From a virus (lineage: Duplodnaviria; Caudoviricetes), in the IMG/VR virus record IMGVR_UViG_3300021399_000003, positions 64,001 to 128,000 of that record: 64,000 nucleotides of DNA; one strand, written 5' to 3'. Below are positions 8,314-10,387 of this stretch, one piece after another; position 1 is the first letter of the stretch; each line of letters begins with the position of its first letter. The notes below the pieces were generated by a model. That model saw only the letters and a program-made list of their open reading frames with translations, was not told the DNA's origin and did not search any database. Both the position numbers and the translations under genes were made by a program.

Positions 8314-8390
8314 TAGCAGGCGTGGCTGGATTTGAACCAGCGAATGCATGGGTCAAAGCCATGTGCCTTAACCACTTGGCTACACGCCTA
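8314..8390 (-). tRNA. tRNA-Gln(TTG)
   Basis: cloverleaf; CATGG-CTTTGAC-CCATG; GTTCAAATC T-loop; ends GCTA. Confidence 0.92.
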
Positions 8391-9108
8391 TAATTTTATT
8401 ATACCATTCTATTAGTTCTTTTTTCTTAGACGGAATATTATTTTTTACACACCATTTTACAACTGCTTTATCAGAAACTCCATATTTTCTGCCTACTGCA
8501 GAAAAACTAGATTCAACAATTTCTTTTGCCAGTTGAATACCTTGCGGGCGTGCAGATATTTTTTCTTGTCTTTCTTGTATTTTTTGTTCTTTTTGACGTT
8601 GTTTTTCGTTTCGAGCAATATCTATTAAAGACGGTCTAATAGGATAGATTAAATAATCTTTTCTCCAAGAAGCTCCACTATTAATTGCTCGAATAGTTCT
8701 TCCAGAAACATTATATTTTGCACCAATAATATCGCTATTATCTAATGTATTTTTTAAATCATTAACAATATTATTAAAAATTTCGTCCGTCATTTTAATT
8801 GCATGAGGAGCATTTTGACCACCTTCTGTTCGATTATATCCATTATTAAAACTGTCATAATAAGAAATCCAATATTTTTCTTTTTCATCTAATTCGGATA
8901 CAAGACATTCTTCTAATATTTCAAAAGAAAAATTATTTAATCCATACAATCTCATATCTTTATATAATGGATTATTATAATTGACTATATTATTACCTAA
9001 ATAATCTGTTCTATGATTTCTCCAACGAGTTTTAATATCTTGTGCTTGACCAATATAAACTAATCCATTTATTAAATTAGTTATTTTATAAATACCACAT
9101 TGTACCAT
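8380..9108 (-). CDS. GIY-YIG homing endonuclease
   Basis: GIYKITN..VYIGQ, R...H, E..WI, GYN..GG. Confidence 0.88.
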   Translation of the reverse strand: MVQCGIYKITNLINGLVYIGQAQDIKTRWRNHRTDYLGNNIVNYNNPLYKDMRLYGLNNFSFEILEECLVSELDEKEKYWISYYDSFNNGYNRTEGGQNAPHAIKMTDEIFNNIVNDLKNTLDNSDIIGAKYNVSGRTIRAINSGASWRKDYLIYPIRPSLIDIARNEKQRQKEQKIQERQEKISARPQGIQLAKEIVESSFSAVGRKYGVSDKAVVKWCVKNNIPSKKKELIEWYNKIIGV

Positions 9109-9136: not shown

Positions 9137-9205
9137 ATAATATTGGCTTAATGAATAGGCATTATTATCTCAAAAGTTAATTACTCTTTTGCTACCCAAT
9201 ATTAT
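9137..9205 (-). promoter_or_regulatory. structured anti-SD leader of homing endonuclease (copy A)
   Basis: 3-way junction shared with 10406-10462; loop CCTATT complementary to AATAGG of RBS. Confidence 0.6.
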
Positions 9206-9206
9206 T

Positions 9207-9283
9207 TGGTGCGAGTAGAGGTAGTCGAAACCTCATCTCCTGGGTGGAAGCCAGGTATTCGAGCTGTTGAACTATACACCTGC
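9207..9283 (-). tRNA. tRNA-Gly(TCC), imperfect acceptor stem
   Basis: CCTGG-CTTCCAC-CCAGG; T arm GAGGT-TTCGACT-ACCTC; ACCA end. Confidence 0.7.
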
Positions 9284-9466
9284 ATAATGCCACTTTAACC
9301 GCTGTGGCCGCGTGCTCCCCAGGTACGCTTGAATCAGAGGCGCGGGCAAGTCTATCAACAAAGTCGCAAAGCGACTTTTCCGCTCTTTCTACACATGGTA
9401 GATGAGCTATGTAGTAACCCCGTGTTTAATGAGCTTTCTGCACGCTACTCTGGCCAGCTCAATATT

Positions 9467-9624
9467 TGTGGTGTGCTATTACGCCAAATCTCATGTTCCC
9501 ATTATCCGTAGGCACATCATACTCAAAAGGGCGTTCCACAATCGTAGCCTTTTGATACATTTCGCACCCACGGGAGAACTTAGAACTCCTTAGCTGGTGG
9601 CTGCTTCTAAGCCAACAGTCCACA
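9467..9624 (-). ncRNA. 23S rRNA H43/H44 (GTPase-associated centre) mimic with 100-nt hairpin insertion
   Basis: TGTTGGCTTAGAAGCAGCCACCA...GAGT[insert]GCGTAATAGCACAC closed by TGTGG/CCACA. Confidence 0.65.
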
Positions 9625-9626
9625 TT

Positions 9627-9722
9627 TGGCGACAGGCTTCGGACTTGAACCGAAACATCAGTATATACTAATTACTCTCTGATTAGCAATCAGATGCCTT
9701 ACCAAATTAGGCTTAGCCTGTC
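9627..9722 (-). tRNA. tRNA-Ser(GCT)
   Basis: TCTGA-TTGCTAA-TCAGA; long variable arm; GACAGGC/GCCTGTC-GCCA. Confidence 0.88.
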
Positions 9723-10387
9723 TTATCATTATCTTGCCATTTCCAAATATAGCCATAAGCGATATTCCTTAGTCCTCGTGCGCATTGACTAATATGGTTA
9801 CTACCTGATTCTTTTCCTAAACTTTTTGCAGCAGAATAACAAGAATAAAATTTATTGATTAAATTACCATTTAAATCATATTGACATAAAATATTATAGT
9901 TATTTTTTATTTGTTTTTCATTAAATAAATCATTTTTTAATTTTATTTCTTTGTTCAAAATAGTAGATAAAACATTCTCTGCGGTATAATTTTCAATGAA
10001 AAAATTAACATTTTGATTTTTTTGTATAGGTGTAAAACTTAAAGTGATTTTATTAGAATAATTTTCACATTCTTGAACAGGAATTAAATAACATTGATTA
10101 TTAAAGTAAGTTGCAAATAAATCAATTTCATTACTAGAATAATTATGTTTAATGTTTTCTTTACCTGATGTTGTTAGACTATATAAATTAAATTCAATTC
10201 CAGTATCTTTTTCTTTACAAGTTTTTACTTGTATTTTTAACAATTTCAACTTAATATCTAATATCATATCATATCTGCAATCTTCTCCAATTGGAATGCT
10301 TATATTATATCCTAAAGAAGTAAGATATGCTTGACATAATAATTCTGTTGTGATTCCTTTAATTTTAGTATCTACCATTTTTATCAC
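9713..10387 (-). CDS. PD-(D/E)XK homing endonuclease with NUMOD1-like C-terminus
   Basis: KG..TE, RYDMILD..KIQVKT, EIDLFA, QYDLNG...AYGYIWK. Confidence 0.82.
   Translation of the reverse strand: MIKMVDTKIKGITTELLCQAYLTSLGYNISIPIGEDCRYDMILDIKLKLLKIQVKTCKEKDTGIEFNLYSLTTSGKENIKHNYSSNEIDLFATYFNNQCYLIPVQECENYSNKITLSFTPIQKNQNVNFFIENYTAENVLSTILNKEIKLKNDLFNEKQIKNNYNILCQYDLNGNLINKFYSCYSAAKSLGKESGSNHISQCARGLRNIAYGYIWKWQDNDKTG

Follow-up and report, generated by a model that had tools for sequence, protein, structure and literature searches.

The minus strand of a 169-kb gut phage carries, at 9624-9467 of the window (the whole 64,000-nt stretch of DNA that was analysed), a 158-nt RNA that resembles the GTPase-associated centre (GAC) of 23S rRNA. 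It belongs to a large family of phage RNAs, which lies outside Rfam 15 and for which no published description was found. As judged from the pattern of fixed and drifting nucleotides, selection appears to target the uL11-binding fold of the GAC rather than its whole factor-binding face. We give about even chances to the reading that these RNAs act away from the ribosome, as a uL11-binding decoy or RNP.

Layout of the GAC-like element

The original prediction, made from the sequence alone, had listed a closing helix, two rRNA-like halves and a long hairpin between them, and had placed the whole just 3′ of a tRNA-Ser gene. All of these parts were located on the minus strand and could be given coordinates (Table 1), and the element starts 2 nt past the encoded CCA of tRNA-Ser(GCU). 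In the window copy, the spacer from U1090 to G1091 is 100 nt long, comprising a 96-nt hairpin and a 4-nt linker. The fold of the whole element is more stable than that of shuffled sequences (z = -2.9). The GAC mimic is present in a single copy in the window's phage, and in two copies in a relative of 169,338 bp (L058 and L145).

Table 1. Parts of the GAC-like element and the adjoining tRNA gene in the window; four-digit positions in the remarks and part names from 1051 to 1108 follow 23S numbering
Part	Positions	Strand	Remarks
Closing helix, 5′ strand (UGUGG)	9620-9624	minus	equivalent of the top of H42, positions 1051-1055; pairs with 9471-9467
A1056 and H43 mimic (1057-1081), including the loop that bears A1067	9594-9619	minus	H43-like hairpin is 9618-9594
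Junction and H44 5′ strand (1082-1090), ending in GAGU	9585-9593	minus	C1082:G1086 in the window copy
Insert hairpin, 96 nt, between U1090 and G1091	9489-9584	minus	branches from H44; conserved internal loop, AUAAU bulge
Linker UUUG, between insert and G1091	9485-9488	minus	present in 93/104 listed members
H44 apical stem-loop (1091-1100) with A1101, C1102 and A1103	9472-9484	minus	ends into ACAC
Closing helix, 3′ strand (CCACA, 1104-1108)	9467-9471	minus	complement of 9624-9620
tRNA-Ser(GCU), CCA encoded	9627-9722	minus	called by ARAGORN and Rfam; 2 nt upstream of the element

Comparison with 23S rRNA

The E. coli rrn operon and a Paenibacillus 23S piece from a phage database record (L003) served as rRNA references. 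Positions 9617-9598 are identical to E. coli 23S 1058-1077 at 20 of 20 nucleotides, and likewise to the Paenibacillus 23S; the E-value of this 20-nt match by blastn-short is 1.2e-4 (20 kb of window DNA against 10 kb of rRNA). With the insert removed, the element agrees with 23S 1056-1104 at 42/49 positions for Firmicute rRNA and at 40/49 for that of E. coli. The seven mismatches to the Firmicute rRNA fall on the compensated pairs 1057:1081 and 1082:1086 (four positions) and on 1056, 1078 and 1101. At 1057:1081, the window copy has C:G and rRNA has A:U. The 23S sequence quoted in the original prediction was checked against these two rRNAs. The resemblance is far beyond chance, because more than 100 homologues retain the same bipartite layout.

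The phage RNA shares the three-way layout of the 23S GAC (E. coli 1051-1108, the 58-nt domain that binds uL11 and thiostrepton), and retains its U1060-A1088 pair, G1071 and C1072, the covariation of 1082:1086 and the closure of the loop by G1093.A1098. In contrast to the rRNA domain, it is free-standing, adjoins phage tRNAs, and is closed by a short helix of its own whose sequence is free. It also differs in having a side helix and UUUG after U1090, in the replacement of U1101 by A, and in its variation at 1096, 1097 and sometimes 1067. The uninterrupted H44 with a GUAAUA loop and U1101 that characterises a genuine 23S gene is not found in the window copy, where A1101 takes the place of U. The flanks consist of a tRNA and unrelated small RNAs, with H41/H42 and H45 absent, and neither the window nor the complete 169-kb phage has a match to the bacterial LSU rRNA model (RF02541) at its gathering score.

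Other rRNA mimics, namely the sarcin-ricin loop, H69 and pieces of 16S, were sought by comparing 20 kb of the minus strand with E. coli 16S, 23S and 5S and with the Paenibacillus 23S; only the GAC match was significant. A 15/16 match of 26912-26897 to 23S 1900-1915 stops before helix 69 and is probably due to chance. It lies within an intergenic, stem-closed RNA at 26935-26845 (minus strand), which is followed by a terminator-like hairpin. Among the inserts, a recurrent 11-nt match to the Paenibacillus 23S was rejected as rRNA mimicry, being a mere short hairpin-loop resemblance in one insert class.

The Paenibacillus reference is itself a genuine 23S stretch inside a GenBank phage record (Paenibacillus phage Pd_22F, MZ092003.1, 82477-85509), and probably stems from host DNA or from a faulty assembly. 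Fragments of rRNA also make up several short 'phage' records from Listeria, Staphylococcus, Escherichia and Salmonella.

A family of GAC mimics in phages

A scan of IMG/VR with the 3′ half alone returned at least 118 stretches. Except for a few chance matches in coding sequences, those listed have a GAC-like 5′ half 75-500 nt upstream. The matches listed from the reciprocal scan, with the 5′ half only, are nearly all insert-bearing elements, with a handful of chance matches in coding sequences; genuine 23S genes were not found among them. A uniform parser applied to the listed IMG/VR matches yielded at least 104 distinct complete members. The search of phage genomes for the bipartite motif, which the original prediction had proposed as a check, thus recovered at least 104 complete IMG/VR relatives that hold both halves, in addition to cultured phages.

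The family design consists of a closing helix of free sequence, an rRNA-like H43 loop, a junction that ends in GAGU, a helix after U1090, the UUUG linker, the H44 loop and ACAC. Across the 104 listed members the insert is 25-346 nt long (median 127), and the insertion point is exactly after U1090. The window copy has every one of these traits: a closing helix flanking 1056/1103, an H43 with U1060, an N-U-A-A-N-GAGU junction, and the order insert-UUUG-ACAC.

Cultured carriers include both jumbo and T4-like phages: Kaldavass, XbC2, XacN1, GAP32, CBB, BF, the pEa_SNUABM phages, pf16, Astolliot, Milchi, UNO-G1W1 and Aeromonas phage 4_4572. Their hosts include Cronobacter (GAP32), Pectobacterium (CBB), Serratia (BF), Erwinia, Xanthomonas (XacN1), Pseudomonas (pf16) and Aeromonas, and the habitats of family carriers are gut, aquatic and soil. 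In the cultured-phage records, the site of the mimic is either without annotation or labelled as a hypothetical protein. In prokaryote genomes, 25 of 120 pattern matches are complete members, mostly on MAG contigs. The GAGU sequence is kept in Erwinia and Xanthomonas jumbo phages, although the host rRNA has GAAA at this place. Because family-specific traits are common to phages of unrelated hosts, the comparison of sequences points to a single origin followed by spread from phage to phage, rather than to repeated capture from hosts.

The inserts fall into several unrelated classes across the family. A G-N-UAA-K-G bulge occurs in about 30% of them, mostly at exactly 11 nt from the insert 3′ end, and in none of the shuffled controls. 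Since the differences between the inserts of subfamilies are great, the inserts may carry the real function. Two IMG/VR loci (L178 and L134) hold insert-free mini GAC mimics of about 60 nt. Of these, L178 has U1101 as in rRNA, a hint that A1101 accompanies the insert. About 20% of members (21 of the 104 listed, those with non-canonical spacing) have a second hairpin of roughly 20-70 nt after A1077 in the H43 3′ strand; these include L023, L033, L046, L047, L056, L090, L101, L102 and L069.

No match to the element was found in Rfam 15, either at the gathering score over the whole window or at E <= 10 over 9200-9750. In the latter region, cmscan at E <= 10 reported only two tRNAs and one chance match to a snoRNA, so that the element matches no group I or group II intron model and no other Rfam 15 model at this threshold. 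A match to a family already described in Rfam, which had been named as the outcome that would remove the novelty of the element, is thus absent from release 15. Full-text literature searches found no published description of such an RNA, and the genome papers of the carrier phages never mention a 23S or rRNA-like sequence.

Covariation and secondary structure

The original prediction had held that the closing helix is compensatorily replaced. UGUGG/CCACA is indeed a non-rRNA helix, and the helix covaries across the family. In the 104 listed members, the pairs 1051:1108, 1050:1109 and 1049:1110 are 96, 88 and 84% paired, with 6-8 pair types each; these are pairs 5-7 of the helix and were not imposed by the filter that defined members. 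Further covariation in the same 104 members is seen at 1055:1104 (G:C 94, A:U 10), 1057:1081 (A:U 67, C:G 14) and 1082:1086 (U:A 50, C:G 30, A:U 10), while 1058:1080 occurs as four pair types across the listed members. In the insert, pairs one and two are formed in 96% and 94% of the 104 listed members, each with at least six pair types.

An alignment of the window's own subfamily (A2, 12 sequences) supports the complete structure: 95.7% of its pairs are formed, with compensation at 25 of 46. Such a result was not obtained in any of 500 shuffles, and slid registers give 36-47%. Frequent G.U pairs are compatible only with an RNA made from the minus strand. The internal loop of the window insert is more conserved than the insert helices.

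U1090 and A1101 could form a pair, and are U and A in 101 of the 104 listed members. H44 seems to stay stacked, and the insert would then leave it as a side branch, with UUUG spanning the junction. RNAalifold proposed an alternative, in which 1081-1086 pair with the linker and G1091-C1092; this pairing fails across the family and conflicts with the 1082:1086 covariation. Positions 1071 and 1072 are without variation. Two members have a changed H44 pair (1091:1100 or 1092:1099), and both come from the scan that fixed the H43 sequence.

Conserved and drifting nucleotides

In what follows, the unbiased set scores each half only from the scan that had not fixed that half (n = 59 or 45). The U1060:A1088 pair is invariant in all 104 listed members, with U1060 present in 59/59 of the unbiased set. 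In the same set, G1071, C1072, A1084, A1085, G1087 and A1088 are each present in 59/59. The G1093.A1098 closure is likewise kept in 104/104 listed members, with A1098 at 45/45 in the unbiased set. U1094 (45/45), A1095 (44/45), A1069 (58/59) and A1067 (51/59) are also kept, as is A1101 in place of the rRNA U (44/45).

Some positions that are invariant in rRNA drift in the phage RNAs. In the unbiased set, 1097 is C in 24, U in 13, A in 7 and G in 1; 1096 is A in 32, G in 12 and U in 1; A1067 is changed in 8/59, and G1068 and A1070 in 9/59 each, all of which is a lower bound on the variation because the fuzzy matching permitted at most four substitutions per half. The H44 loop differs even among near-identical relatives, namely the window copy, L142 and L175.

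Binding of uL11 needs the GAC tertiary fold (PMC6239185), and uL11's C-terminal domain forms hydrogen bonds with the U1060-A1088 pair (PMC2175356). The fold nucleotides are fixed in the phage RNAs and the factor-facing 1096, 1097 and, in part, 1067 drift. This agrees with selection on the fold and on recognition by uL11, and agrees less well with selection on the complete factor-binding surface. A1067 and A1069 contribute no hydrogen bonds to the GAC fold, and A1095 makes no tertiary contact in the GAC and contacts cofactors instead (PMC6239185). The retention of A1095 is the one feature without an explanation under a simple fold or uL11 reading, and hints at a partner other than, or besides, the uL11 C-terminal domain.

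Genomic context

The element shares its orientation with 13 tRNA genes and with one ROOL and one drum RNA, all on the minus strand. The surrounding island contains tRNAs and RNA-repair genes. Association with tRNAs is widespread in the family: a same-strand tRNA lies within 20 nt in 34/103 listed members and within 500 nt in 57/103, and an opposite-strand tRNA within 500 nt was found in 0/103. In listed members, the gaps between element and tRNA are 0-13 nt on either side. Between 12178 and 17374 (minus strand) there are seven near-consensus sigma-70-type promoters with 11/12 matches, mostly TTGACT-17-TATAAT; the one nearest to the element, upstream and on the same strand, is at 12206-12178. 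These promoters suggest that the tRNA and ncRNA island may be strongly transcribed by the host polymerase. The two ORFs that flank the element, 8380-9108 and 9713-10387 (minus strand), are homing-endonuclease-like, with GIY-YIG on one side and PD-(D/E)XK plus NUMOD1 on the other.

A conserved partner gene was sought by comparing with one another the 2,280 ORFs that lie within 4.5 kb of the listed members, and no family was found in more than 8 of 104 neighbourhoods. Among the top neighbour clusters, one is an 80-aa ORF without a Pfam match, another is a YunG-like protein, and a third resembles HNH weakly, below the Pfam cut-off. A uL11 gene (PF00298) is absent from the phage, while the control search was positive in 14/14 genomes. 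Since there is neither a partner gene nor a phage uL11, the partner should be a universal host component.

Proposed function and alternatives

The claim that GAC mimicry is under selection, made at first from a single copy, has strong support from the number of relatives, from the covariation and from the constancy of the tertiary-fold nucleotides. Several targets had been proposed with it. uL11 fits best, given the U1060-A1088 pair in all listed members, and is the most likely partner because the conserved part is the fold to which it binds. uL10 is doubtful. Its site spans nearly all of H42, with a conserved H42 core that is thought to be essential for stalk binding (PMC1635324), and in the phage RNA a short helix of free sequence stands in for H42. 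Direct capture of translational GTPases is weakened as a proposal, because 1097, 1096 and A1067 vary although they are invariant in rRNA.

In the proposed mechanism, the element would be co-transcribed with the phage tRNA genes from the minus strand (9624-9467), and RNase P together with tRNA 3′-end processing would probably release a stable RNA of about 158 nt, whose 5′ end is probably set by 3′ maturation of tRNA-Ser(GCU). Its two ends would fold as the GAC tertiary structure (top of H42, H43 and H44), with the side helix off H44. Since the insert and the 4-nt linker sit inside H44, beside the core of the fold, this tertiary structure is a prediction for the phage RNA. The RNA would most likely bind host uL11 away from the ribosome and, as a uL11 sponge or as an RNP, could alter the amount of functional uL11 at the stalk base of host ribosomes. 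Because ribosomes already contain most of the cell's uL11, a sponge would have to be abundant or to rely on exchange of uL11. One plausible benefit is that uL11-dependent activation of RelA is weakened, and with it the stringent response during infection. Blunted alarmone signalling is plausible because RelA is activated through the uL11/H43-H44 site (PMC9998046), and phages that counteract the stringent response are known (PMC13483052). It is tempting to extend this to the whole family: many unrelated large phages might wield a portable, uL11-binding copy of the GAC against host translation control, stripping away or intercepting uL11 and possibly docking factors, and thereby causing RelA-dependent alarmone signalling to fail, along with other steps that depend on uL11. 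We put this wider reading forward tentatively, and think it rather doubtful.

Other readers of the same surface might account for part of the data. The rRNA-targeting factor of the original prediction could be a toxin, since one that hits nt 1095-1098 exists: Tre23 modifies 23S H44 within these nucleotides (PMC8661411). The phage RNA might then be a decoy or sponge for an attacker of the GAC, whether an ADP-ribosyltransferase or nuclease toxin or a thiopeptide, sparing host ribosomes for phage messages. Retention of A1095 (44/45), A1098 (45/45) and A1067 (51/59) would suit such a role, and an island of tRNAs and RNA-repair genes resembles a counter-defence kit. However, 1096 and 1097 lie in the Tre23 target window and are free to change, even from one near-identical relative to another; competing with thousands of ribosomes would demand very high levels of a decoy, and carriers that span very different hosts and habitats argue against one specific toxin or antibiotic. 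We regard this explanation as unlikely. A mini stalk base off the ribosome, made of the RNA and uL11, possibly with uL10/bL12, could instead capture translational GTPases, RelA or tRNA elbows. In the ribosome, A1067 and A1095 contact factors and tRNA, and most members keep them; linkage of the element to tRNA genes is tight, and uL10 reads mainly the backbone and overall shape of its site, including the upper H42 stem and the junction loops (PMC1635324). Against this, the conserved H42 core for stalk binding is missing and the closing helix is free in sequence, 1096 and 1097 are free as well, and a mimic of the sarcin-ricin loop was not found in the island; such a particle seems quite improbable.

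The remaining explanations do without a ribosomal partner. The GAC fold, once captured from rRNA, might merely be a stable, self-closing clamp that holds a functional variable insert. The range of insert lengths (25-346 nt) and the several unrelated classes, the bulge shared by about 30% of them and the internal loop of the window insert, which is more conserved than its helices, all speak for the inserts. A simple clamp, however, has no need of 20 nt of rRNA identity, and exposed loop nucleotides that provide no hydrogen bonds to the fold (PMC6239185) stay near rRNA (A1069 58/59, A1095 44/45, A1067 51/59). The insert-free minis imply moreover that the core is valuable on its own, and a pure clamp is in our estimate improbable. 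The long exact rRNA matches, and the presence of genuine 23S pieces in some 'phage' records such as that of Pd_22F, could also be taken as signs of a functionless remnant of host 23S, or of exons that once flanked an rRNA intron. This is hardly credible. There is no flanking rRNA, no LSU model match in the window or whole phage, and no matching intron model; the non-rRNA closing helix covaries, and A1101, UUUG, GAGU and the fixed insertion point are common to phages of unrelated hosts. Covariation and these shared family-specific features refute a dead rRNA fragment.

Relation to known RNAs and significance

The closest parallel to an off-ribosome uL11-binding RNA is found in the autoregulatory leaders of ribosomal-protein mRNAs (r-leaders, such as those for L1, L10, L20 and S15; PMC7247131), which likewise imitate the rRNA site of an r-protein away from the ribosome. 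They act in cis, as 5′ UTRs of r-protein genes, and reproduce no more than a few contact nucleotides (PMC7247131). The phage RNA, by contrast, reproduces an entire domain almost nucleotide by nucleotide; it is situated in an array of phage tRNAs, and r-protein genes are absent both downstream of it and from the phage as a whole. ROOL, GOLLD and drum (RF03087, RF02958; PMC5737381) share the habitat, being structured RNAs that travel with phage tRNAs in the same kind of island; in the window's phage, ROOL and drum sit 4-7 kb from the GAC mimic. Unlike the GAC mimic, none of them copies a ribosomal domain, and there is no relation in sequence or structure between them and it. The logic of capturing a partner by RNA imitation is also that of the pseudo-ToxI of phage PhiTE (PMC3475682) and of the tRNA-like Y RNAs (PMC4201824). 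The phage GAC mimic differs from these in imitating a functional ribosomal domain, for which no precedent was found.

If the RNA is indeed a portable trap for uL11, it would be the first case known from any virus of an rRNA domain imitated by a free-standing RNA. Binding to uL11, or to another reader of the GAC, would give phages an RNA-based route into the ribosomal stalk base, which is a control site for translation factor turnover and for the stringent response. To our knowledge, no virus hits the stalk base with an RNA. Because the family is present in cultured phages, the idea is directly testable in laboratory strains. The family also offers about 100 natural variants of the 58-nt GAC, a model of RNA folding, and shows which positions tolerate change and where an extra helix can be grafted.

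Further small RNAs beside the element

Downstream of the element lie a tRNA-Gly and small RNAs. At 9410-9355 (minus strand), a small motif of about 26 nt is followed by a hairpin, and no Rfam match was obtained at E <= 10. The 9406-9381 part is 100% identical to an unannotated site in P1/P7, located about 40 nt from the rlfB stop codon in the rlfB-rlfA (DUF3800) pair; a DUF3800 gene was sought in the window's phage and is absent. The same motif has about 93% identity to sites in SPbeta/phi3T phages, and occurs in a Vibrio phage as well. Between the GAC mimic and tRNA-Gly there are two more conserved, GC-rich RNA modules, at 9466-9411 and at 9352-9285 (minus strand). The GC-rich modules act as independent cassettes, since their combinations and orders differ between relatives, sometimes with an intron-bearing tRNA between modules.
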